This document shows positions 6,819-40,430 of a stretch of DNA of 40,430 nt, in pieces. Positions within the stretch are counted from its first letter, which is position 1. Every line of letters starts with the position of its first letter. The stretch comes from a virus. The DNA is taken from the IMG/VR virus record IMGVR_UViG_3300025297_000002; one strand, 5' to 3'. The translations under genes were made by a program, and so were the position numbers. Under the pieces are notes generated by a model. It saw nothing but the letters and a program-made list of their open reading frames with translations. It made no database searches and was not told where the DNA came from.

Positions 6819-7273
6819 CCGTTAATCCAGCCCTGGGGCGTCGCGCCGTACTCGCCAGAGCCGGCCGCCGCGTCGAGGTCGAGCAAGCGGCCATTGACGC
6901 GCGCGGCGGCCTTGTTGAGCCGCGAAACGAAGTCGCGCAGCTCCTCGCCGAACTCCAGGCCCTTGGCTTTCAGGAAACGGTATTTGAGCCCGTCGATTGC
7001 CAGCCTGGGCTCAAAGGCGATCATGTCGCTGTCGGCGGTGATGGCGTCTTTGGGCGCGAGCGTCGAGCCGTCGAGCAACCAATAGCCGTCGCCCAGGGTG
7101 ACCTTGTATGGTTCCTCGTTGAGCACCTCGTCGGCCACGAGCGACAGCAGCGCCAGCATCTGCGCGATGTCCTGGTCGTTGCTGCCCACGGCCGACGAGA
7201 TCGGGCGTTGCGAAATGCCGATCTCTTGCGACGCTTGGCTGATGGCATCTTTGACCGAGATCAGCGCCGGCAT
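6794..7273 (-). CDS. Head-to-tail adaptor-position protein (159 aa; position of P22 gp4 / T7 gp11)
   Basis: Track ORF. The call rests on gene order (capsid, unknown gene, this gene, nozzle) only. Confidence 0.45.
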   Translation of the reverse strand: MPALISVKDAISQASQEIGISQRPISSAVGSNDQDIAQMLALLSLVADEVLNEEPYKVTLGDGYWLLDGSTLAPKDAITADSDMIAFEPRLAIDGLKYRFLKAKGLEFGEELRDFVSRLNKAAARVNGRLLDLDAAAGSGEYGATPQGWINGWQGGRVQ

Positions 7274-7274
7274 G

Positions 7275-7820
7275 TTAGGCCACCCGCTGCTTTAGCGAAT
7301 TGATCATGCTGTTCTGAGCCGAGACGGTCGCCTGTAGCTCCTTCACTTGCTCTTTCAGCACCTCGATTTGCGCGTCGCGGTCGCGCACCTCGGCCTCGAA
7401 TTTTCCGACATTGGCGCTCATGGCGATCATCGCGCGGGCGCGGTCGGCCAGCTCGACGAGATCGCCCGGCATCGCCGTATCGCGGCGGCCGGCATACTTG
7501 GCGAGCTGTTCAACGGTGTTGATGTCGCGGTCGGCGAGCATCTTGAATTGCGACACGCTCACCACCGGCCAGAGCGCCAGGGGAAAGCCGGCCTCGCCGG
7601 GTTGCTGGAGGCGCGCGCCCTGCTCTTTCACGAAAAGCTGATAGGGGCCGGGATAGTCGTCGAAATCCTGCTGGGTGGCCTCGTATTCGACTTGCGTCAG
7701 AGGCGGCACCGATTTGACGATGCGCACGGTCGGCTTGTAGCGCGGCAAGCCGTCGTCGCCGGTGCCATCGGCGGCCCATCCTTCTTTGAACCGGATAAGG
7801 GCCTGGGTTTCTTCTGCCAT
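7275..7820 (-). CDS. Hypothetical virion-module protein with a C-terminal coiled coil (181 aa)
   Basis: Track ORF immediately after the capsid hairpin. C-terminus ...EAEVRDRDAQIEVLKEQVKELQATV... Confidence 0.55.
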   Translation of the reverse strand: MAEETQALIRFKEGWAADGTGDDGLPRYKPTVRIVKSVPPLTQVEYEATQQDFDDYPGPYQLFVKEQGARLQQPGEAGFPLALWPVVSVSQFKMLADRDINTVEQLAKYAGRRDTAMPGDLVELADRARAMIAMSANVGKFEAEVRDRDAQIEVLKEQVKELQATVSAQNSMINSLKQRVA

Positions 7821-27317: not shown

Positions 27318-27592
27318 CGATAGACCCTAATCGCCTGGGCGATGCCCCGATTGATCCGAGCGTCGCGGCGCTCATGCAAAGCTTGGCGCGCGGCGTTGAC
27401 GAGGTGCTCAACGGTGCCGGTCACAGGCACACCGGCTTTGTGCTGCTGGCCTTCCCGCTCAACACCGAGGAAGGCCGCGCCAACTACATTTCCAACGTCC
27501 AGCGGCCCCAGGTCGTGCAGTTGCTGCGCGCCCAGCTCGCCCGCTTCGAAGCCCAGGAGAAAGAGGCCCATGGAAACGCAAACCAGAGCTGA
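27314..27592 (+). CDS. Hypothetical protein (92 aa)
   Basis: ATGA junction with the exonuclease stop. Confidence 0.55.
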   Translation: MTIDPNRLGDAPIDPSVAALMQSLARGVDEVLNGAGHRHTGFVLLAFPLNTEEGRANYISNVQRPQVVQLLRAQLARFEAQEKEAHGNANQS

Positions 27593-28808
27593 CCGACAGG
27601 CGGCGCTCGACCAATTCGCCCAGGCGGCGACGAGCAAGGGTGAGCTGGCGACGATCTCGCCGGCTGTCACGCGGCACGACGTTTACGGTGCCCAGCCCGT
27701 CGCGGTGTATCGCGACGATGCGCGGGTCCTCCAGCAAATCAAGGTGCTGGCCGCCGCCATGGGCGAGGAATGGTATTACCGCTACCCAGTGCGCAATAAG
27801 CGCGAAAACCGCACCGACTACATCGAAGGCCCGAGCATCAAACTCGCCAACGATCTGGCGCGCATCTATGGCAACTGCGAGGTCGATTGCCGCGCCCAGG
27901 ACATGGGCTCGGCCTATCTGTTCCATGCGCGCTTCCTCGACCTCGAAACCGGCTTTGCGCTCACCCGCCCGTTTCAGCAGCGCAAGGGCGCGGCAAAGAT
28001 CGGCGGCGACGATGATCAGCGCCGCGAAGATGCGACGTTTCAAATCGGCGTGTCGAAGGCGATGCGCAACGTGGTCGTGAACGCGCTGCAAACCTATTCC
28101 GACTACGCCATGGCCGAGGCGAAAAACTCCCTGGTCGACCGCATCGGCCGTGACCTCGCTAAATGGCGTGATCGCACCATTGAGCGCGTCGGGCAGCATG
28201 TCGAAATTGCGCGCGTCGAGGCCGTCGTGGGCCGCAAGGCCAACGAATGGCTTGCGCCCGATGTCGCCCGCGTTATCGCCATGGGCAAGGCCTGCGATGA
28301 CGGCTTTGCATCCTGGCAAGAAACGTTCCCGCCACTGTCGACCGGCAGCTCGGGAAGGACCACGAAAGAGGCGCTCGACGGCTTTGCTGATGAGCGCTCA
28401 ATGGTAGGCAGTGGCGCACCGTCGCACGTCACCACTGCCGAGGCCGCCGGTGCTGCGGAAATGATCCCCTCAACTGAGGCAGCACCGGCGGCCGAACATT
28501 ACGCGGAACACCTTGGCGTTCCGGCCGGCGAGACGGTCGACAAGGAAACCGGCGAGATCACCACGCAAAAGACCGAGGCCGAGGTGCGCGACATGCAGCG
28601 CAAGGCCATCGACATGGTGATGCGCCTCGCCGGCAATCCCCAGCTCACGCTCGACGAGAAAATGCAGGAGCTGGACGCCATCGGCCCGGCCCTCGACGAC
28701 TTGCCCGAGCAATTCGTGAAAACCGCCGTGCAGACTGCCGCCAAGGTGGCGCAAGGCAAGATGAAAGCGGCCGATGCCCGGCCCTACCTTGAAGGATTGA
28801 TCAAGTGA
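27570..28808 (+). CDS. Putative single-strand annealing protein, Rad52-like N-terminal domain (412 aa)
   Basis: ATG at 27570 with an AGGAGAAAGAGG RBS. ...DYIEGPSIKLANDLARIYGN... resembles the Rad52 motif YIEG..(I/V)..LAN...G. Partnered with the YqaJ exonuclease. Confidence 0.5.
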   Translation: METQTRADRQAALDQFAQAATSKGELATISPAVTRHDVYGAQPVAVYRDDARVLQQIKVLAAAMGEEWYYRYPVRNKRENRTDYIEGPSIKLANDLARIYGNCEVDCRAQDMGSAYLFHARFLDLETGFALTRPFQQRKGAAKIGGDDDQRREDATFQIGVSKAMRNVVVNALQTYSDYAMAEAKNSLVDRIGRDLAKWRDRTIERVGQHVEIARVEAVVGRKANEWLAPDVARVIAMGKACDDGFASWQETFPPLSTGSSGRTTKEALDGFADERSMVGSGAPSHVTTAEAAGAAEMIPSTEAAPAAEHYAEHLGVPAGETVDKETGEITTQKTEAEVRDMQRKAIDMVMRLAGNPQLTLDEKMQELDAIGPALDDLPEQFVKTAVQTAAKVAQGKMKAADARPYLEGLIK

Positions 28809-29110
28809 GCGATGCACTGACCGAAAATGAAACCATCACCACCGGCATCATGCCCTCGCATTTGCGCCCGGTGCCGGATGCCGATCCGAAGCGCAAGAAA
28901 TTCGAAAAGCTGGCGTCGGCCCGCGTCAAGCGCGCGATCAAGGCAATCCGCATCGTGGCCGGCATGGGTGGCAAAAACCGCTATGCCTATTCGTTCAGCT
29001 CGGCCGATGTCGACAAGATCGCCCAGGCCCTCGACGAGGAAGTGACCACGCTGCGCGAAAAGATGATCGCGCCCGGCCGCCAGATGGATATCGAGTTCGA
29101 TTTCAAGTGA
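28805..29110 (+). CDS. Hypothetical protein (101 aa)
   Basis: GTGA junction. Track ORF. Confidence 0.5.
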   Translation: MSDALTENETITTGIMPSHLRPVPDADPKRKKFEKLASARVKRAIKAIRIVAGMGGKNRYAYSFSSADVDKIAQALDEEVTTLREKMIAPGRQMDIEFDFK

Positions 29111-29217
29111 CCAGGGAAGCCCCAGGACGCGCGTTTGCGTCGGCGGGGCCAGTGATACCTCGGGGCGCGCTCGTCGCGCTCCTAGAGCCCGCCACGGGCC
29201 AATCCAGGGGAAAGACG

Positions 29218-29478
29218 ATGACGGCCGACGAAATCACGCTGCCGCGCTATGTGACCATCACCTATTTCTTGACCCAAATGCTGGGCCGGAAGTCGCGCGG
29301 CACCTATTACAACCATATCGATGATCCGGGCTGGCCCCAGCGCGTCATGATCGGCGGCAAGCCGATGCTGAATTACGATGATTGCGCCTCCTACATCCGC
29401 CGCCAGGATCAGCTCGGCCGTGCGCCGAAGGAAAAGCCGAAGCGCCCACGCGGTCGCCCTCGCAAGGCGCGGCGCTGA
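29218..29478 (+). CDS. AlpA/excisionase-like HTH protein (86 aa) with a basic tail
   Basis: ATG at 29218 with an AGGGGAAAG RBS. ...ITLPRYVTITYFLTQMLGRKSRGTYYNHIDDPGWPQRVMIGGKPML... Confidence 0.5.
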   Translation: MTADEITLPRYVTITYFLTQMLGRKSRGTYYNHIDDPGWPQRVMIGGKPMLNYDDCASYIRRQDQLGRAPKEKPKRPRGRPRKARR

Positions 29479-29837
29479 TGCGCACGCCCGACGAAATCGC
29501 CCTCGACCTTTTCGCGTCCAGGGAAGCGCGCGACGAGGGCTTTGCAGCAGTCTCGGGCCGTGAGCCGTGGATCAAAAGCAAGGTCGGGTGGATGGCGGTC
29601 GCGATGGTCAAGGTTTCCAGCCTGCCGCCCGACTGGACCGGCACCGGCGAGGATATCCGAGTGCATTGCATGCGCCAGGGCGCGCCGATGCCTCACCATT
29701 CGAATGCCTGGGGTGGCCTGATCAATTCGTGCATCAAGGCCGGCCTACTGCATAAGACCGGCCAGCATGGGCAGATGCGCGCCGTCCGAAGCCATGCGAG
29801 ATCGACGCCGATCTACAGCCGCCGGCCGGGCCAATAA
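29478..29837 (+). CDS. Hypothetical protein (119 aa)
   Basis: TGATG junction (MRTPDEIALDLFASREARDEGF...). Confidence 0.55.
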   Translation: MRTPDEIALDLFASREARDEGFAAVSGREPWIKSKVGWMAVAMVKVSSLPPDWTGTGEDIRVHCMRQGAPMPHHSNAWGGLINSCIKAGLLHKTGQHGQMRAVRSHARSTPIYSRRPGQ

Positions 29838-29990
29838 CAGTTTGTCGACGATGCCGGGCAACCGGCGCGGGGCAGTGGGTCGCTCCCACAAAGCAGCGGC
29901 TTCCGAGTAGTAGGGCACCGCCAGGAGATAGGCCCCTGGAAGGAGGCCCCGGAAATCGTCCTTCATGTGAAGCTGTCGTCGACAGGGAAA

Positions 29991-30016
29991 GGGCCGCTCT
30001 CGGGCGGCCCTTTTCT
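29991..30016. terminator. Bidirectional terminator between the convergent plus-strand early operon and the integrase operon
   Basis: GGGCCGC-tctcgg-GCGGCCC flanked by an A-run and TTTT. Confidence 0.6.
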
Positions 30017-30203
30017 ACTTCTGCACCACCACGGCAAGGAACCGAATATGATCGGCCTCTTGCTTGTCGAGGATTTTGCGGTGGCTTCGACCCAGGCCGC
30101 GCGACTGCCAAACCGTGGCCCAGTTGTCGGTCGAAAAGAACACGCGCCCGTCGACCATTTCGAGCGTCTCGCGTTTTGGCTTCGGTGCCGTGCTGCGCTT
30201 CAT
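30015..30203 (-). CDS. Hypothetical protein (62 aa), last gene of the integrase operon
   Basis: ATGA junction at 30200-03. Confidence 0.5.
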   Translation of the reverse strand: MKRSTAPKPKRETLEMVDGRVFFSTDNWATVWQSRGLGRSHRKILDKQEADHIRFLAVVVQK

Positions 30204-30724
30204 GCGAACAGCCCCCCGAGCACTTCCATTTTTTCGGCGGCCGAGTGCTCATGTTCGGCGATGCCGCCCCGGTGCTCAATCCACCGGCCGCCGGTGAGCG
30301 ACGGCGGAAAGAGCGTGAAGCCTTCCGAGCTGCCATAGCGGATGATTGCCGCCATGCCCTTCTCGCCGCCGTAGCGGTCGAGGAAGGCGCGCAGCGCTGG
30401 GTCGCGGTGCGCGTCGGGGTGGCGAGGGTCGACCCACACTTGCAAGACGCCGATGGTCTGGCGCTCGCCGGTGTCCGAAACGGCGGTCACGTAATCCGGC
30501 ATCACGTCGACAACGTAGTGCGACACATCCGGCCGGCTCATGGCCTCGGTGCCGTCGCCCACAAGCCACATGCACGACCAAAGGCGGCAGCTCGCCGGCC
30601 GCCGGGGATATATCCGGCACCCGGTGTGACGCTGATGCTGGCACCGCTGGCCGGCCGCCTTGTTAAGCTCGGCCTGGGGCAGCAGCTTGCAACAAAGGGT
30701 GCAGTTTCCACACTTCCGGCTCAT
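30200..30724 (-). CDS. YkgJ-family Cys-cluster (CxxCxxCC Zn/Fe-chelating) protein (174 aa)
   Basis: MSRKCGNCTLCCKLL...CQHQ...GCRIYPRRPASCRLWSC. ATGA junction. Confidence 0.65.
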   Translation of the reverse strand: MSRKCGNCTLCCKLLPQAELNKAAGQRCQHQRHTGCRIYPRRPASCRLWSCMWLVGDGTEAMSRPDVSHYVVDVMPDYVTAVSDTGERQTIGVLQVWVDPRHPDAHRDPALRAFLDRYGGEKGMAAIIRYGSSEGFTLFPPSLTGGRWIEHRGGIAEHEHSAAEKMEVLGGLFA

Positions 30725-30942
30725 GCTTTCACCTTGACGCCCTTCCATAGGGCGGCCTCGGCCTTTTCCAGCTCGTCCTGCGCGCTTTTGATGAGCGCCA
30801 GGACCATTTCGGGCGAGGAGTTGGACGTGGCCTGTAGGTGCGCCTGCCCGGCGATTTGAAACGCCGCCTTTAGGTGGCGCTCCAGCTCGACAAGCCGGCG
30901 CTTCTGGCGGGCCTGTCGCAATTCTTTGTGGATCATGCTCAT
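30721..30942 (-). CDS. Hypothetical helical protein (73 aa)
   Basis: Track ORF with an ATGA junction. Confidence 0.5.
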   Translation of the reverse strand: MSMIHKELRQARQKRRLVELERHLKAAFQIAGQAHLQATSNSSPEMVLALIKSAQDELEKAEAALWKGVKVKA

Positions 30943-31310
30943 GCCAGCGCCTCCAGCTCCTCGCGAGGATATAGCCGCGCGATCTCGTCGGCGCGCAAGG
31001 CGTCGAGCGGCACGATCTCGGTGCCGTTGCGGAAAACGAGCACGGTGCGCTTGCCGTCATACATGCCTTTGAAGTCGCGATGTGTGCGCCGCCAGATGGC
31101 TTTCTCGCCCTCACTGCGTTCGATGAAATGCGGCTTGAGGCCGGCGGCGCGAAGCGCTGCAATGCTTTCCTCGGCAGAGTGGACCGGGATGCCTGCCATC
31201 TTCACGTCGCCGCGCGTCAACAGCACGGTGCCGAGCGCTTTTGTGATGGCCTCGGCGTCCTTGCCGAAGGCCTCCAGAAAATCACCGCTGCGCTGCAAAA
31301 TTACGATCAT
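30939..31310 (-). CDS. Stand-alone MutS domain I (mismatch-binding domain)-like protein (123 aa)
   Basis: ATG at 31310 with an AGGAAG RBS. IVILQRSGDFLEAFGKDAEAITKALGTVLLTRGD..VKMAGIPVHSAEESIAALRAAG parallels E. coli MutS [51 protein letters not shown] and retains the Phe-x-Glu motif. Confidence 0.6.
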   Translation of the reverse strand: MIVILQRSGDFLEAFGKDAEAITKALGTVLLTRGDVKMAGIPVHSAEESIAALRAAGLKPHFIERSEGEKAIWRRTHRDFKGMYDGKRTVLVFRNGTEIVPLDALRADEIARLYPREELEALA

Positions 31311-31560
31311 GGTTTTCTTCCTTTGTTGCCATGAGGTCGGGGTCGATCTCGATTTCGTCGATGCCGTAGTTTTCGGCGACCAAGCGCCCGGCCTGGGTCG
31401 CCAGGGCTCGGCCGATGTCGCCACCGCAAACCATCGCCATGCACTTCTCATGACCTCTTTGCGGCCCTCGGGCGAGGATCAGGGACACGGTCCAGCCGTG
31501 CCCCCAATCTTCTCTCACCCGGCGGATGATCACCTTTTCGGTGATGGTGACGGCGTCCAT
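31282..31560 (-). CDS. Hypothetical protein (92 aa)
   Basis: TAATG junction with the integrase stop. Overlaps the next gene by 29 nt. Confidence 0.5.
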   Translation of the reverse strand: MDAVTITEKVIIRRVREDWGHGWTVSLILARGPQRGHEKCMAMVCGGDIGRALATQAGRLVAENYGIDEIEIDPDLMATKEENHDRNFAAQR

Positions 31561-32840
31561 TACGCCGCCGCCTTCAATTCGATGACATTCGAGCTGGTCG
31601 CAAACTCGCCCCAGGCCTGGAGGAGCGACCGGCGCGCGTCGAGCATTTCGTCGCGGTCATAGGCGCGCTGCACCTTGGTCCCGATGACGTGGCCCAGGGC
31701 CAGCTCGGCGGCCTTCTCGTCGAGCTTCCGAGCCGAAACCCAGGTGCGGAACGTGGCGCGCATGCCGTGCGGCGTGGCCTTGCCGCCCAGGCCCAGGCCG
31801 CCCTTTGCAACCGGGTCGATCAGCTTGTCGCGCAGCGCGCCCTCGTTCACCGGCTTTTCGCCGCCCAGGCCCCAAAACACGAAATCCGACAGCGCCGACT
31901 TGTGGCAGCTTTCGAGCACCGCCACGGCGGCATCCGACAGCGGCACGATATGCTCGCCGTTCTGCGCGTCGCCGTTGTCGCTCTTGTTGCGCTCGGCCGG
32001 CACGACCCAGGTCCGCGACTTGAGGTCAATTTCCGACCACCGAGCACCGCGCGCCGCATCGGTGCGAACGGCGGTGAGCGTGGCGAAAGCCAGGGCCTTG
32101 GCCGCGTTGCCATTCTTCGGGCCGATCAGCTTGCGGATCACGGCCGGCAGCTCGGCATAGGGCAGCGAGGCCTGCTTGCGCTTGGCGGCGGTGTCGCGCT
32201 TGCCCAGGAGCTGTTCGATATGGGCATCGAAGCGAGCCGGGTTCGGGCCGACATGCAGGCCGCGAGCAATGGCGAGATCAAGCACGGTTTCGACGCGAAC
32301 GCGAACGCGCTCGGCGGTGACATGGATGTCGTTCCAAATCGGCTTGAGCACCTTGACCACGTCATCGGTCGTGATGGTCGAGGCGCGCTTGATCAGCAGC
32401 GAACCGGCGTGGTTCTTGAGCGAATTGCGCCACTCGTCTTCCTGCTGGCACTTGCCGCCCTTGACCTTCCAATCGCTGCGCTTGGTGCCGTCGCCCTTCT
32501 CGCGCTTAATGACCTCGTCGAGCAACTCGGCGAACGTCACCGAGCCGGCCAGGGCGGCGCGCTTGGCGGCAATCTTGGCCTCGACCGGGTCGACGCCCTG
32601 CGACAGCGACAGGCGGGCGGCATCGGCGCGCAAGCGGGCCTCGGTAATGCCGACAGCGAAGGCCGCGCCAGCGCCGGTGTAAGAGCCCAGGCCCAACTCA
32701 CGCTGCTTGCCATTGGCGGCGCGATAGATGAAAAGCCAGGACTTCGCGCCGGTGGCCGACACGAGGAGATAAAGGTTGCGCCCGTCGCTGTAGCGGCCGG
32801 CCTTGAGGTTGCCATTGATGAATGCGGTGGTGAGCTTCAT
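31560..32840 (-). CDS. int: Tyrosine recombinase / phage integrase with a DUF4102-type N-terminal arm-binding domain (426 aa)
   Basis: N-terminus ...GRYSDGRNLYLLVSATGAKSWLFIY...GKQRELGLGSY. C-terminus ...HGMRATFRTW...LGHV...AYDR. Confidence 0.9.
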   Translation of the reverse strand: MKLTTAFINGNLKAGRYSDGRNLYLLVSATGAKSWLFIYRAANGKQRELGLGSYTGAGAAFAVGITEARLRADAARLSLSQGVDPVEAKIAAKRAALAGSVTFAELLDEVIKREKGDGTKRSDWKVKGGKCQQEDEWRNSLKNHAGSLLIKRASTITTDDVVKVLKPIWNDIHVTAERVRVRVETVLDLAIARGLHVGPNPARFDAHIEQLLGKRDTAAKRKQASLPYAELPAVIRKLIGPKNGNAAKALAFATLTAVRTDAARGARWSEIDLKSRTWVVPAERNKSDNGDAQNGEHIVPLSDAAVAVLESCHKSALSDFVFWGLGGEKPVNEGALRDKLIDPVAKGGLGLGGKATPHGMRATFRTWVSARKLDEKAAELALGHVIGTKVQRAYDRDEMLDARRSLLQAWGEFATSSNVIELKAAA

Positions 32841-32946
32841 AATCCCGTTCCTCTGTTCCCAGCGGTGCCCCCAGCAGAAAAGGGCCGCTTTCGTGAACAG
32901 ATTTAAACGGGGTTGTACGCAAATGCAAGAGGAACGCCGGAAAACC

Positions 32947-32968
32947 GGCTATTTTTTAACGGAGTTGC
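32947..32968 (+). repeat. Motif copy GGCTATTTTTTAACGGAGTTGC
   Basis: 19 of 22 positions identical to 33106-27. Confidence 0.7.
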
Positions 32969-33105
32969 ACCCTGATGAACCACCCCCGGCGGAGGAGATG
33001 TCCGCCGGGGAGGACGAGGGGGCATAATTTACCGCCTTGGTTTCGTTGCACTTTTCACCGATAATCCGTTTATTCGACATGCCTGCCCCCAGCGTTTACC
33101 ACAGC

Positions 33106-33127
33106 GGCGATTTTTTAACGTGGTTGC
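33106..33127 (+). repeat. Motif copy GGCGATTTTTTAACGTGGTTGC
   Basis: Direct repeat of 32947-68, 159 bp apart. The core AACGTGGTTGC recurs at 18332-42. Confidence 0.7.
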
Positions 33128-33153
33128 CTTCTCTCACGAATCGAAGCGACGTT

Positions 33154-33615
33154 TCAAGGCTGCGATGGCACCCGAGGCGGTGAGTTTTCCATGCGCTGGA
33201 GGGTTTGATTGGTGAGCGCAATCTGTGTCGAGATCGCCGAAAGCTGGGTGCGCATGTCGGCGAATTGGTTGCTGTAGCTCTCGGTCACGCGGCTGATGCG
33301 GTTGTCGGTGGTTTCATATTCCTTCTCCACCTGGGCCAGCCGATATTCAAACTCGGTCATTTTGAACAAGGTCGTGTCGATGCCTTTGATGCGCTCGCTG
33401 AGTGCGGCGAAGTTGCCGCGCATGTCGGCCACGAGATCGCGGTGCGCCGTCTCGTGTTGCGTGCGCCAATCTTCCAAATCGCCAACTCGCGACTGCGTCG
33501 TGCCCCAGGCGATGCCGACGAGCACGAACGTTCCCAGGAAGCCAGCGACCGAGATCACCGTGTTGAGGTTGATCGACTTTAGGTCGATGCTGCCGTCAGC
33601 CATGGCGACGTTCAC
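33154..33615 (-). CDS. N-terminal TM + long coiled-coil protein (i-spanin-like or exclusion protein, ~150 aa)
   Basis: ...VISVAGFLGTFVLVGIAWG followed by heptad-rich sequence. GTGA junction at 33612-15 (alternative ATG at 33603). Confidence 0.5.
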   Translation of the reverse strand: MNVAMADGSIDLKSINLNTVISVAGFLGTFVLVGIAWGTTQSRVGDLEDWRTQHETAHRDLVADMRGNFAALSERIKGIDTTLFKMTEFEYRLAQVEKEYETTDNRISRVTESYSNQFADMRTQLSAISTQIALTNQTLQRMENSPPRVPSQP

Positions 33616-33785
33616 GACGGCTTATTGGCCGGGAAAAGGAACGTGGTCACCGCCGCCAGAAGGACGGTCACCGCGCCCTGAATTTCCGGCGTCGCCAGCT
33701 CGGCGGGCAGGCCGTATTTCGACACGAGCACGCCGACGACGCCGCCGACGAGCGAGCCGTAAAACTTCGAATAATTGCCAAGCAT
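33612..33785 (-). CDS. Small hydrophobic holin-like membrane protein (57 aa)
   Basis: My own translation: MLGNYSKFYGSLVGGVVGVLVSKYGLPAELATPEIQGAVTVLLAAVTTFLFPANKPS. AGGAGG lies 5 nt upstream. Below the track cutoff in this frame. Confidence 0.5.
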   Translation of the reverse strand: MLGNYSKFYGSLVGGVVGVLVSKYGLPAELATPEIQGAVTVLLAAVTTFLFPANKPS

Positions 33786-33794
33786 GATGGCCTC

Positions 33795-34124
33795 CTACTG
33801 TTGAGCCTTTTTGGCCTTGGCCTCTTTCAGGGCTTGCGAAATGACGATGTAGGCGTTGGCCGCCGCGACGAGCACGGTGGTCGAGGTGGCATGCGAGGGG
33901 TCCGCACAAACCGGCTGGAGCAACGCCCAGGCCTGGGCCTCTCGGTCGATGGTCTTCTGCGACACTGCCCCGGTGGCGGCGACAGCGATAAAGCTCTCGT
34001 GCAGCGGCGTGGCGGCGGCGCAGAGCTGGGGCGCGGACTTCTGGATTGCCGCATCGATGTCGGTGACGGTTTGGCACCCAGCGAGCGCCAGGGCGCACAC
34101 CACGGCGACGATAAGTTTTTGCAT
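33795..34124 (-). CDS. Lipoprotein (109 aa; lipobox LALAGC)
   Basis: MQKLIVAVVCALALAGCQT... AGGAGAGGG RBS. Several further Cys residues. Confidence 0.65.
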   Translation of the reverse strand: MQKLIVAVVCALALAGCQTVTDIDAAIQKSAPQLCAAATPLHESFIAVAATGAVSQKTIDREAQAWALLQPVCADPSHATSTTVLVAAANAYIVISQALKEAKAKKAQQ

Positions 34125-37805: not shown

Positions 37806-39848
37806 CTATTTGTCCTGCTGTGCCGAACCGGCGAGCCCCAGGGCCGAAGCCAGGGCCGCCAGCGTGGCGACTTGTTGCGCTCGGTAGCTCATCGGCATGC
37901 CGCCTTCCCTGGTCGCCCAAGGGGGCAGCAAACCGGCCTTCTGATCGGCGTAGGTCGTGTCGCGCGGATTGGCGCGGTTCGCGTCGCCGTAAGGCCCGAA
38001 ATTCACCCAGGAGTTTTGTCCGCGCGTCTCGGTCGTGAGCGCCGGAACAGCGTCGGGCGAGAAAAGGCGCTTATGCGCCTGCCATGCATTTTCCTCGCCG
38101 CGCGCACCGAAGTTAGCACCTTCCATGCCGTGGCCGAAATAGTCATGCACGGCCCGGAATGCATCGTTGACGAGCATGTCGTGGCCGCCGTGGTTGATGC
38201 CGGTCGGGGCGAGCATCGGATTGTCGGCGGCCGAGGCGTTGACCGAGCCGAAACCTTGCTCGGTCGGGAACACCGAAAGATGGTTGTTTGCCCTGAGATC
38301 GGCGAGCGCATCGCGCGGGCCGCCTGGGTATGGGTCGGGCGCTCCAGGCTTCAAGAAATCGATCTTGGCCCCGCTGTCGAGCATGGCCTGCCATTGCTTC
38401 ATCGTCTCGTCGGCGAGGGCCTGATAGGAAGCGGCAACGCGCGGGTCGGCCGGGTCGTGCGGCATGCGGTCATAGGCCTGGGCGATGTAGCGGCCCCGGC
38501 GCGGGCTCACCTCGGCATAGGCGGGCTGGCGCTTTAGATCGATGCCGGCGCGGCGCGCATATTCCTCGGCCGCCGCGTTGACGGCCGGCACCGGCCCCTC
38601 GACGTGCGGCGGCGCGCCTTTGAGCGGGCCGAAGTCCATAGCCTCGCCACCGGCGGGCGCGGCCGGCCGTCGCACGATCTGGAAAAGGTCTGGCACGTCC
38701 TGGGTTTCCCAGGGCGGAATTTCGCGGCGCTGTTCGGGCGTGAAATCCTGCCGGGCCTGGACATTGCGCGCCTCGACCTCGCCGGCAAGGTGCTGGTAAC
38801 CGGCGCGCGGCCCCTTCACGTCGATTGCATTGAGCGCCTGATGGCGCAAAGCCTCGTCCTCGGGATTGGCCTTGCTCCATTCGTCATAAGCCGCCTGGAG
38901 CGCGGCGAGCCGGTCGCGGCCCTCGACGCCCTCAAGCCCTTCAAGGTTCGGACCATATTTCGCATCGACAAAGGCGCGACGATTGCCGGCGATGGCGCGG
39001 TGAATGTCGGCCGCGCGCTGGCCCACTTCGCGAGCCTGGGGAACGAGCGTGTTGTCTGCCGGATTGCCGCCGCGCGGGAAGCCCTCGGCGCGCTGCGCGG
39101 CGTGTTGCAGCTCGTGCAGGCCAATGTCGCGCACATCGGCAATGTCCTTGCCGGCGGCCTGGAGGGTGTTGCTCGGCGCGTCGAACATGCCGCCGCGAAA
39201 GGTCGGGTCAAGCGAAACGCTGGCGTCGATCTCACGCAACTGCGGGTGGCTGGCGTACAGCTCGGGATGATTGATCACGCCGGCCGCCTTGCCGGTGTAC
39301 CCAAGGAGGTCGCCATCGTCGGCCGGCTGTTTGATGGTGCGGGCGGCCGGGTCGCTCACCTTGGCTGGGGTGTCGTCGATCTCATATTTCCAATCGCCGT
39401 GCTGCTTGAACCACCCGGTTTTTTGCAGCACGTCCTTTCGGCTTGCGCCGCCCTCGGCCATCGACTTGGCGAGCTGGAGCGCCTCACGGTCGGCGAGCTT
39501 CGAAGCGGCACCCAGGAAGATGGCTTTCATGCCGGTGCCGACATCAGGAACGACACCCACGGCGTTAAGGCCGGCCCCGACATAGTCGCCGTGCTTGAGA
39601 TTGCGGGCGGCGTCCTCCGCTGCAATGGCCGTTCCGGTGCCGGGGAAGGCCCCCAGGAGCGTCATGCTGTCCCGCCGGGCCTCGTCATACGGCTTGCCCG
39701 AGATCGCGTTTGCAGCGCCTCCCATGAGGTCCGCAAGGCGGTCCCGCCAACTCGGGTTGTAATTTTCCGCATAGGTGCCGGTCGGCGAGGGCGGCGGCTC
39801 GGCCTGCCCTGCTTTCCACTTCCTAATGAGGTCATACTTATCTGCCAT
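37806..39848 (-). CDS. Large two-part virion-module protein (680 aa) with a zincin-like HExxH motif and a His-rich C-terminal domain; polyvalent/ejected effector candidate
   Basis: HELQH at 39102-16 followed by ...AEGFPRGG...GEVEARN. C-terminal ...NDAFRAVHDYFGHGMEGANFGARGEENAW... Lies between an ejection protein and the tail fibre. Confidence 0.6.
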   Translation of the reverse strand: MADKYDLIRKWKAGQAEPPPSPTGTYAENYNPSWRDRLADLMGGAANAISGKPYDEARRDSMTLLGAFPGTGTAIAAEDAARNLKHGDYVGAGLNAVGVVPDVGTGMKAIFLGAASKLADREALQLAKSMAEGGASRKDVLQKTGWFKQHGDWKYEIDDTPAKVSDPAARTIKQPADDGDLLGYTGKAAGVINHPELYASHPQLREIDASVSLDPTFRGGMFDAPSNTLQAAGKDIADVRDIGLHELQHAAQRAEGFPRGGNPADNTLVPQAREVGQRAADIHRAIAGNRRAFVDAKYGPNLEGLEGVEGRDRLAALQAAYDEWSKANPEDEALRHQALNAIDVKGPRAGYQHLAGEVEARNVQARQDFTPEQRREIPPWETQDVPDLFQIVRRPAAPAGGEAMDFGPLKGAPPHVEGPVPAVNAAAEEYARRAGIDLKRQPAYAEVSPRRGRYIAQAYDRMPHDPADPRVAASYQALADETMKQWQAMLDSGAKIDFLKPGAPDPYPGGPRDALADLRANNHLSVFPTEQGFGSVNASAADNPMLAPTGINHGGHDMLVNDAFRAVHDYFGHGMEGANFGARGEENAWQAHKRLFSPDAVPALTTETRGQNSWVNFGPYGDANRANPRDTTYADQKAGLLPPWATREGGMPMSYRAQQVATLAALASALGLAGSAQQDK

Positions 39849-39984: not shown

Positions 39985-40430
39985 TTGAACATGCCGGCCG
40001 CTCCCGCACCGGCGGCCTTTCCCGCCTCGCGCTCCAGCGATTGCTGCATCATGAGCCGCGCGAGCTGCGCCCTCGTCGGCACCATCTGAAACGGCATTGC
40101 CGGTTGACGGGCGAGTGAGCCCGTCGAGATCAGCCGCACCAAGTCATCGCCCGCATCTTCCGACATCCGATCAGCGGCCATCCTGGCGGCTTTGCCGGCC
40201 CCGTAGAGCGCGCCCGAGCCGCCCAGGCCGACAAGTGCCGCCGTGGTCGGTTCTGCCCCGTGTAGGAGCGCGCCCAGGCCGCCAGCGCTGCCCAGGATGT
40301 TGCCCTGCACACCAGCCATAGGCCCCGAGCCGCCGAAGCGGTTGCCGAAGCTGCGCAGCATGTTTTGAACCGGCGAGCCCTCGACCACCCTTTCCATCTG
40401 CCCCAGCTCCTCGGGCGAGTAGGGATTGAA
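39981..40430 (-). CDS. C-terminal part of the 548-aa Gly-rich ejection protein whose start is at 1324 (wraps through the circular junction)
   Basis: In phase with 1..1324 once the 127-nt overlap is collapsed: (1324+323)/3 = 549 codons. The track ORF 39981..40397 is only the piece after an internal Met. Confidence 0.75.
   Translation of the reverse strand, partial: FNPYSPEELGQMERVVEGSPVQNMLRSFGNRFGGSGPMAGVQGNILGSAGGLGALLHGAEPTTAALVGLGGSGALYGAGKAARMAADRMSEDAGDDLVRLISTGSLARQPAMPFQMVPTRAQLARLMMQQSLEREAGKAAGAGAAGMFN
40304..40430. repeat. Terminal overlap copy 2, identical to 1..127
   Basis: Exact 127-nt match to the window start. Its position inside a CDS argues for assembly circularisation rather than physical genome ends. 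Confidence 0.95.

Follow-up and report, generated by a model that had tools for sequence, protein, structure and literature searches.

The integrase (int) operon of a temperate phage genome, IMG/VR virus record IMGVR_UViG_3300025297_000002 (40,430 nucleotides, analysed as a whole and called the window below), contains at positions 30939–31310 of the minus strand a gene for a 123-residue protein built of two modules. By sequence and predicted structure its N-terminal half is the core of MutS domain I (MutS-I), truncated at both ends, and this is joined to a C-terminal module that also occurs in the DUF1419 proteins of plasmids. The best reading of the sequence comparisons is that the protein belongs to a radiation of MutS-I domains on mobile elements and is not a piece of host repair machinery. 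As to function we tentatively favour, as a reasonable possibility rather than an expectation, a small non-catalytic two-module binder of distorted DNA that would be part of the mobile-element toolkit and would act by occupancy.

The gene is real and is under selection. Its translation is identical to the protein sequence quoted in the first-pass annotation of this DNA, and it has 16 close homologues (61–90% identity) which with the window protein make up a family alignment of 17 sequences. All of them share the start M-[IK]-V-I-L-Q, and because every homologue begins there a longer in-frame open reading frame (ORF) reaching up to 31451 was rejected as the gene start. Spurious ORFs are abundant in the window, the G+C content of which is about 64%; the ORF of the MutS-I gene has the raised third-position G+C typical for genes of the window. 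Pairwise dN/dS among eight genes from different contigs is 0.29 for residues 1–63 and 0.27 for residues 64–118, and both halves are therefore under purifying selection. A promoter and terminator scan of 29700–33400 returned nothing above the shuffled background.

The first-pass annotation had read the 123 residues as an orphan MutS domain I, and the domain assignment was borne out. Pfam MutS_I (PF01624) matches at 39.2 bits (E = 8.9e-10, gathering cut-off 20.6 bits), with residues 3–72 aligned to profile positions 18–92 of 113. Profile positions 1–17 and 93–113 are unmatched, so that the protein lacks the N-terminal helix and the final strands seen in canonical domain I. The NCBIfam MutS equivalogs match residues 3–65 only, at 37.8 and 30.3 bits against cut-offs of 480 and 642, MutS chains in the PDB match residues 4–58 in a sequence search, and a search of PHROGs with the window protein gave a single weak match to an 853-position family of unknown function. 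The best AlphaFold2 model from the family alignment has a mean predicted local distance difference test score (pLDDT) of 90.4 and predicts the order strand-strand-helix-strand-strand-helix-strand for the N-terminal module (N-module); the other four models are much poorer (70 down to 42), which leaves it uncertain how the two halves pack against each other. When the predicted model was compared with the PDB by Foldseek, every top match was domain I of MutS or MSH3, with E. coli MutS chains aligned over 54–66 columns at 0.8–1.2 Å root-mean-square deviation and 33–41% identity and Taq MutS superposed at 1.9–2.0 Å. The annotation had proposed a superposition of a predicted structure on MutS domain I as a check, and the predicted model does superpose, at about 1 Å. 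The window protein and the bacterial domain (E. coli, 1E3M; Thermus aquaticus, 1EWQ) thus share the same fold core and the motifs GDF-x-E-x-F, DA, LT-x-RG and MAGIP-x-H, whereas the window protein differs in being phage-encoded, truncated and fused to a foreign C-terminal domain.

The mismatch-contacting Phe-x-Glu wedge, which the annotation had recognised as F-L-E, is present as F11-L12-E13 and in the predicted model lies at the tip of the first hairpin of the N-module. G9, F11, L12 and E13 are invariant in all 17 family sequences, and Phe-x-Glu is also invariant in nine mini MutS-I proteins. No second significant Pfam match was found in the 123 residues, which agrees with the annotation's statement that the connector, clamp, ATPase and helix-turn-helix (HTH) domains are missing: connector, lever, clamp, ATPase and the dimerisation helix-turn-helix are all absent, and an ATP-driven clamp and the recruitment of MutL are therefore impossible.

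The truncation at both ends relative to Pfam MutS_I, together with the degenerate state of some copies on chromosomal islands (see below), could mean that the gene is a functionless, decaying fragment of a captured mutS. We find this hardly credible, and it was already disfavoured: dN/dS is near 0.29 in both halves, the start codon, the Shine-Dalgarno sequence and the reading-frame overlaps are conserved, the 16 homologues are distinct and occur in two kinds of element, identity to rhizobial MutS is only about 36%, and the core is fused to a second conserved domain.

It is this second domain that makes the label orphan inapt, since the annotation had missed a C-terminal module of about 60 residues (C-module) to which the truncated core is fused. 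A search with the family profile against 1.84 billion representative proteins gave two separate classes of match, one over residues ~3–65 and one over residues ~64–117. The C-module, with the motif W-x-x-T-H-x-D-[FY]-[KR]-G ... R-x-G-T ... L-x-x-L-[TR]-x-x-E-I, stands alone in many proteins of 57–100 aa, mostly basic (median isoelectric point (pI) 9.5), and also forms the C-terminus of larger proteins with unrelated N-terminal parts. It has no Pfam family and no PHROG family. Modelled alone (pLDDT 88) it is predicted to form a helix, three strands and two helices, and a fold search against the PDB returned nothing significant (best E 1.2); a faint chromodomain-, Tudor- or Sso7d-like likeness is not relied on. 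As a candidate for the missing C-terminal part of MutS domain I the C-module was ruled out (hhalign probability 0.2%).

The C-module corresponds to residues 124–192 of plasmid DUF1419 proteins of about 200 aa (hhalign 98%, E 2e-13; BLASTP E 3e-4). Pfam DUF1419 (PF07215) covers residues 1–112 of these plasmid proteins and leaves the C-module unmodelled, and the window protein has no match to the Pfam DUF1419 profile at E ≤ 10. A tblastn search with the C-module consensus matched 323 plasmids, of which 207 are conjugative; the hosts include Agrobacterium (119), Rhizobium (44), Bradyrhizobium (38) and Mesorhizobium (17), and most of the plasmid matches listed carry the annotation "DUF1419 domain-containing protein". 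Judged from these profile and sequence matches the C-module is an independent, widespread and unmodelled domain. The DUF1419 proteins of rhizobia and agrobacteria share with the window protein the C-module, the bacterial order of the host and the location on mobile elements. They differ in that the head is DUF1419 rather than MutS-I, and in that their neighbourhood is a primase-like, DUF3085 and methylase-helicase cluster with no recombinase.

Two rhizobial plasmids that we examined carry this same cluster of DUF3991+Toprim, DUF1419/C-module, DUF3085 and a 1700-aa Eco57I-type methylase/SNF2 helicase. According to a 2026 paper (PMC12826799), no Pfam family is more enriched than DUF3085 in plasmids of broad host range. 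On an Iodobacter plasmid a 71-aa C-module protein is encoded directly upstream of ssb-parA-korB, and on a Tenderia plasmid the C-module is fused to DUF6908 near an anti-restriction gene. Across these clusters, which lie on conjugative or mobilisable plasmids, the companions of the C-module thus include primase-like, ssb, methylase-helicase and anti-restriction genes. Literature searches returned no paper on DUF1419.

The relatives of the N-module also lie on mobile elements. Outside the family its best matches are not canonical or host MutS; they are MutS_I domains in polyvalent-type proteins and mini MutS-I proteins of phages. Large MutS_I-bearing relatives (P0019, P0033, P0075 and P0088) are among the best-scoring matches from outside the family. 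Their architectures include a 1329-aa metagenomic protein (P0019) with three to four tandem MutS_I domains and DarA_C (MutS_I 158 bits in three stretches), a 761-aa protein with InPase, DarA_N and MutS_I, a 4169-aa protein with MutS_I, LPD38 and a Strawberry-notch-type helicase, and a 3131-aa protein with MutS_I and ART-PolyVal. The multi-wedge architecture of P0019 is unusual. These large relatives fit the MutS-I class that Iyer et al. (2017, PMC5512222) described within polyvalent proteins, in phages and conjugative elements, and for which they proposed binding to DNA delivered into the recipient; about 80% of the MutS-I-bearing polyvalent proteins also carry ArdC-N, and the class, reported from Bacteroidetes and Firmicutes, was described as the only MutS-I outside MutS (PMC5512222).

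Like the window protein, these polyvalent proteins have a mobile-element MutS-I with Phe-x-Glu and are presumed to be non-catalytic DNA binders. Their MutS-I, in contrast, is embedded in proteins of 760–4200 aa with DarA, ART, helicase and large polyvalent protein-associated (LPD) domains, whereas the window protein is a free 123-aa protein with a different partner domain, from an alphaproteobacterial temperate phage. Polyvalent proteins are defined by two to fifteen conflict-related domains in a large polypeptide, and here we find two small non-catalytic modules; on its domain architecture we therefore regard the window protein as an unbundled relative of the polyvalent proteins and not as a member. 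The window phage also has a polyvalent-type protein, since a 680-aa protein near the tail-fibre gene (37806–39848, minus strand) carries Pfam LPD23, a "large polyvalent protein-associated domain". The domain at the N terminus of ArdC that binds single-stranded DNA is comparable by function only, as a non-catalytic DNA binder that protects incoming mobile-element DNA; neither Pfam nor Foldseek detected a sequence or fold relationship between ArdC-N and the window protein.

Many other relatives consist of MutS-I only, in proteins of 63–170 aa, and Phe-x-Glu is kept in all 28 that were read; BFVD likewise holds predicted phage proteins of 74, 84 and 153 aa with MutS-I only. One such mini protein (P0080), 47% identical to the window N-module, is encoded on a 119-kb phage-like contig, in the company of small early genes; the contig has Tet/JBP, ADDT and P-loop kinase genes of DNA hypermodification and, 5 kb away, a faint ArdC-N gene. 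On this contig (L033, 10555–15371) Tet_JBP, ADDT, a PALP enzyme, Ploopntkinase3 and ParB_N lie adjacent as a thymidine-hypermodification-type cluster. Rhizobial MutS, compared with residues 3–67 of the window protein, shows only about 36% identity, which argues against a recent capture from the host. With counter-defence polyvalent proteins as the nearest relatives of the N-module, the theme appears to be a different one from that of the first-pass annotation.

A further group of small MutS-like proteins, the Msl proteins found with some diversity-generating retroelements (DGRs), resembles the window protein by description, the level at which the two were compared: Msl is small (112–283 aa), is encoded on mobile elements, has homology to the mismatch-recognition part of MutS and lacks the ATPase. 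Msl is suspected to interact with heteroduplex DNA or with mismatch repair (Wu et al., 2018, PMC5758913; Macadangdang et al., 2024 preprint). Host mutS suppresses the retrohoming of DGRs 5–10-fold (bioRxiv 10.1101/2024.11.15.621889). A DGR context was considered for the window gene and rejected: the window has no long YxDD ORF and no reverse transcriptase Pfam family occurs among the genes called on the 20 kb around it, repeats not having been searched.

The two-module family itself is, by sequence searches, confined to Mesorhizobium phages and satellite-like islands, where it always lies beside a recombinase gene. All named close homologues are from Mesorhizobium, and a JGI soil/rhizosphere-type metagenome contig (Ga0077121_10001070) carries the same gene. 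A megablast search of 29000–34000 against cultured phages gave no match, and a scan of IMG/VR with the family patterns found no relative. Among 50,697 phage records searched by tblastn with the protein there was no two-domain homologue; the search returned mutS genes, mutS DNA of likely host origin and a few records without annotation. A scan of GTDB genomes gave one Mesorhizobium locus and distant N-terminal matches in unrelated metagenome-assembled genomes; one of these distant matches (L018), when read, turned out to be a canonical MutS N-terminus.

The window is a complete temperate phage. An exact 127-bp direct repeat at its two ends (1–127 = 40304–40430) shows it to be a circular assembly. 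The complete genome, of about 40.3 kb, has genes for large terminase, portal, major head protein, tail fibre, endolysin, CI-like and Cro-like regulators, a P4-type integrase and a YqaJ/RecE-like exonuclease. The operon on the minus strand has the order int, orf92, MutS-I gene, orf73, orf182, orf62 with overlapping stop and start codons, so the co-orientation with int claimed in the first-pass annotation extends to a same-strand operon with overlapping reading frames (Table 1). At 31560 the stop of int overlaps the start of orf92, and the ATG of the MutS-I gene lies 29 nt inside orf92; translational coupling of the MutS-I gene with its neighbours through these overlaps is likely. Related phage contigs have the same layout with the small genes shuffled: homologues of orf92, for which Pfam, PHROG, NCBIfam and PADLOC gave no family match, lie upstream or downstream of the MutS-I gene, and the MutS-I gene is first or second after int in all four phage contexts examined. 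Upstream of int a 313-bp non-coding gap (32841–33153) separates it from small unannotated genes, with the tail-fibre gene beyond. Within it a GCCGG-AAAA-CCGGC hairpin followed by a T-run lies on the plus strand at 32936–32949. The gap is likely the attP and int-promoter region, and no att core was identified in it.

Table 1. Features of the phage and plasmid loci discussed in the text; positions refer to the window unless another locus is named.
Feature	Position	Strand	Basis or remark
Gene for the two-module protein (MutS-I core and C-module)	30939..31310	-	123 aa; TGA stop included
N-module, residues 1-63, truncated MutS domain I core	31122..31310	-	Pfam, Foldseek, AlphaFold2 secondary structure
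F11-L12-E13, codons TTT CTG GAG	31272..31280	-	aligns with the Phe36-x-Glu38 mismatch wedge of E. coli MutS
C-module, residues 64-123 (core ~64-117, ~55 aa)	30942..31121	-	separate stretch in profile search
Shine-Dalgarno sequence AGGAAG	31317..31322	-	6 nt before the ATG of the MutS-I gene; read from sequence
Tyrosine integrase, P4-type arm-binding domain, first operon gene	31560..32840	-	Pfam Arm-DNA-bind_3, Phage_int_M, Phage_integrase; phrog_1
orf92, small conserved gene overlapping int and the MutS-I gene	31282..31560	-	ORF
orf73	30721..30942	-	ATGA overlap with TGA of the MutS-I gene at 30939-30942; conserved in L006, L024, L025
orf182, N-terminal CGNCTLCC (CxxCxxCC) motif	30200..30748	-	phrog_9155 only (unknown function); 74-76% identical in L006, L025
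orf62, last int-operon gene	30015..30203	-	ORF
YqaJ/RecE-like exonuclease, 305 aa	26400..27317	+	Pfam YqaJ E 3e-11; phrog_434 E 3.8e-49
412-aa partner of the exonuclease	27570..28808	+	phrog_3657, unknown function
Four-gene C-module plasmid cluster (Agrobacterium)	L030 5521-12850		
Four-gene C-module plasmid cluster (Mesorhizobium)	L031 5389-12823		

The second context of the family is formed by small integrative islands of five types in Mesorhizobium chromosomes (L002–L005, L009, L015, L022–L023). They have the order int, primase-helicase (AAA_25 or DUF5906), small terminase (Terminase_2), resolvase and MutS-I gene, and in four of the five the MutS-I gene is followed by cargo of type I restriction-modification, PIN or HigB genes. 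Their gene content suggests phage satellites that bear defence systems and have genes in common with the window phage group. In five island contexts the MutS-I gene is found beside the resolvase gene, either 14–96 nt after it or 735 nt from a divergent one.

The constant company of a recombinase raises the question of whether the protein might be an architectural or directionality factor that bends or kinks att or res DNA for the neighbouring integrase or resolvase. MutS domain I kinks DNA at the wedge in the 1E3M and 1EWQ structures, the position of the gene directly or second behind int in the phages and next to the resolvase in the islands would suit such a role, and no Xis or HTH_17 gene was recognised in the window int operon with Pfam, PHROG or NCBIfam. 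Nevertheless, we consider this quite improbable. Three of the five island types have an HTH_17 gene of their own next to int, and a faint HTH_17 gene stands at the operon end of one related phage (L024). In island L022 a 199-aa gene, coupled upstream of the MutS-I gene, separates it from a resolvase gene that is read from the other strand. A sister phage (L013) has a similar integrase and no MutS-I gene. The protein itself has no Xis, HTH_17 or winged-helix fold by Pfam and its fold matches MutS only, and the broad spread of the C-module on plasmids is unconnected with recombinases.

The islands also hold copies in which the wedge has been lost. In L015 a GTG at 6935, preceded by AGGAAGG (the same AGGAAG-type motif as in the window), opens a full-length 123-aa homologue (6935–7306), and by this the annotated 101-aa P0190 is probably mis-started. 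The wedge of this homologue reads C-L-Q (GDCLQAF) and MAGIP-x-H has become MVRIP-x-R (MVRIPIR), whereas the C-module is well conserved. In P0189 most of the N-module is lost and the C-module is retained.

Retention of the C-module where the wedge has decayed, its fusion to unrelated N-terminal domains, its occurrence alone, and the restriction-modification, PIN and HigB cargo beside the island genes could all be accommodated if the C-module were the functional part, for docking to a host or element partner or for oligomerisation, and MutS-I only one of several interchangeable heads (DUF1419, DUF6908 and others), each delivering different cargo to that one partner. Under such an arrangement the protein might be an exclusion factor of prophages and satellites against other phages. 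We think it unlikely that the C-module is the functional centre in this way, as purifying selection acts equally on the N half and the wedge shows no variation among the 17 members; the proposal also names no partner, and PADLOC gave no match for the protein or its neighbours.

The first-pass annotation had connected the gene with the phage's own recombination system, proposing that the protein caps mismatches or poisons host MutS/MutL and so increases homeologous recombination and recombination mediated by the exonuclease and an annealing protein. The exonuclease of the supposed Exo and Rad52-like pair was confirmed as YqaJ/RecE-like; for the Rad52-like identity of the 412-aa partner there was no signal, and sequence searches of Pfam, NCBIfam and PDB matched it to none of Rad52/Redβ/Erf, RecT and Sak4. 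The partner is kept beside the exonuclease in all related phages (386–412 aa) and may be an undescribed annealing protein or something else. The link between the MutS-I gene and this pair is weak. The operon of CI, exonuclease and 412-aa protein, on the plus strand, is convergent with the int operon, and the sister phage L013 has the same exonuclease module with a 65-aa protein in a related small-gene cluster that consists of the C-module only, the MutS-I part being absent. In the islands no exonuclease or annealing-protein gene is annotated within the 7–10 kb examined on either side.

We therefore regard interference with host repair in the service of phage recombination as doubtful. It would account for the invariance of Phe-x-Glu in all 17 members, for the presence of a YqaJ/RecE-like exonuclease and a partner gene in the same phage, and for the absence of the MutL-recruiting and ATPase parts, because of which binding could only block repair and not trigger it; the Msl proteins are a precedent for the hypothesis (PMC5758913). 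On the other side stand the location of the gene in the convergent int operon rather than the Exo operon, the uncoupling of the two in L013 and in the satellite-like islands, the L015 variant without Phe and Glu, and a 412-aa partner whose identity as an annealing protein could not be verified. Moreover, MutS would have to be out-competed by a monomeric core that lacks clamp domains, and the anti-repair activity of Msl is itself only a hypothesis. A literature search on phage-encoded inhibition of MutS showed no title about such an inhibitor among those listed, and none of the papers returned by one on isolated MutS domain I has the term "isolated domain". That the protein makes mutators of lysogens is pure conjecture. 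A more specific form, in which the protein is an ATP-independent blocker of mismatch repair that competes for substrate, with a wedge stabilised by the C-module keeping host MutS off recombination or integration intermediates, seems to us improbable.

For the reading that we tentatively favour, a non-catalytic binder of distorted DNA, two independent lines converge: the relatives of the N-module and the plasmid clusters of the C-module both point to a toolkit for counter-defence and establishment. The wedge would recognise local distortions of the DNA, for example mismatches, unpaired bases, kinks or junctions of single- and double-stranded DNA, and the C-module would add a second contact, which could be with DNA, with another copy of itself (oligomerisation) or with a different protein as partner. 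The protein would occupy distorted sites in the element's own DNA during establishment, integration or recombination of the phage or satellite, and its occupancy would shield these sites from host nucleases, restriction enzymes or mismatch repair with no signalling of repair. Such occupancy is the simplest mechanism, and the elements that encode the protein have to establish themselves in a host and recombine there. It would be made during integration and excision, as the overlap of its reading frame with int operon genes suggests, and possibly in lysogens.

Several observations weigh against this proposal. Full MutS needs its clamp domains and dimerisation as well in order to bind DNA; both are absent here, so the 63-residue core may bind DNA only weakly. 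The window protein is neutral (pI 6.9), and the L015 copy, with Phe and Glu lost and the C-module kept, indicates that the wedge is not indispensable there. The gene lies behind int and not in an obvious immediate-early operon, and the plasmid contexts of the C-module are guilt by association. PADLOC gave no match for the protein or for the genes beside it in the operon and in the islands, and no anti-defence family matched. Finally, we found no literature report of an experimental test of any stand-alone MutS-I protein.

Computational work has already recognised small MutS-I proteins on mobile elements, as polyvalent domains, as Msl and as auto-annotated virome proteins, and the two-module protein is for this reason not categorically new. 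What is new, on the sequence comparisons described here, is the fusion of a helix-less MutS-I core to the C-terminal module of DUF1419 proteins, the restriction of this fusion to Mesorhizobium phages and satellite-like islands beside a recombinase, and the recognition of the C-module as an independent domain. MutS domain I is textbook repair machinery the reuse of which by mobile elements has so far been noted only computationally, and the locus provides a compact 123-aa example with an intact wedge, under selection and in a defined context, a temperate Mesorhizobium phage and its likely satellites. The C-module is frequent both on the conjugative plasmids that rhizobia and agrobacteria carry and in small proteins from contigs of phage-like or other mobile-element type. 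If the protein does compete with MutS for substrate, diverged phages and satellites would recombine into mosaics more readily, Msl and the phage mini MutS-I proteins would be explained in the same way, and the protein would offer a portable local off-switch of mismatch repair for recombineering. If instead it shields DNA from mismatch repair or nucleases, it would represent a new class of counter-surveillance factor and a possible aid to recombineering; and if it does not, the definition of the C-module still annotates hundreds of plasmid genes.

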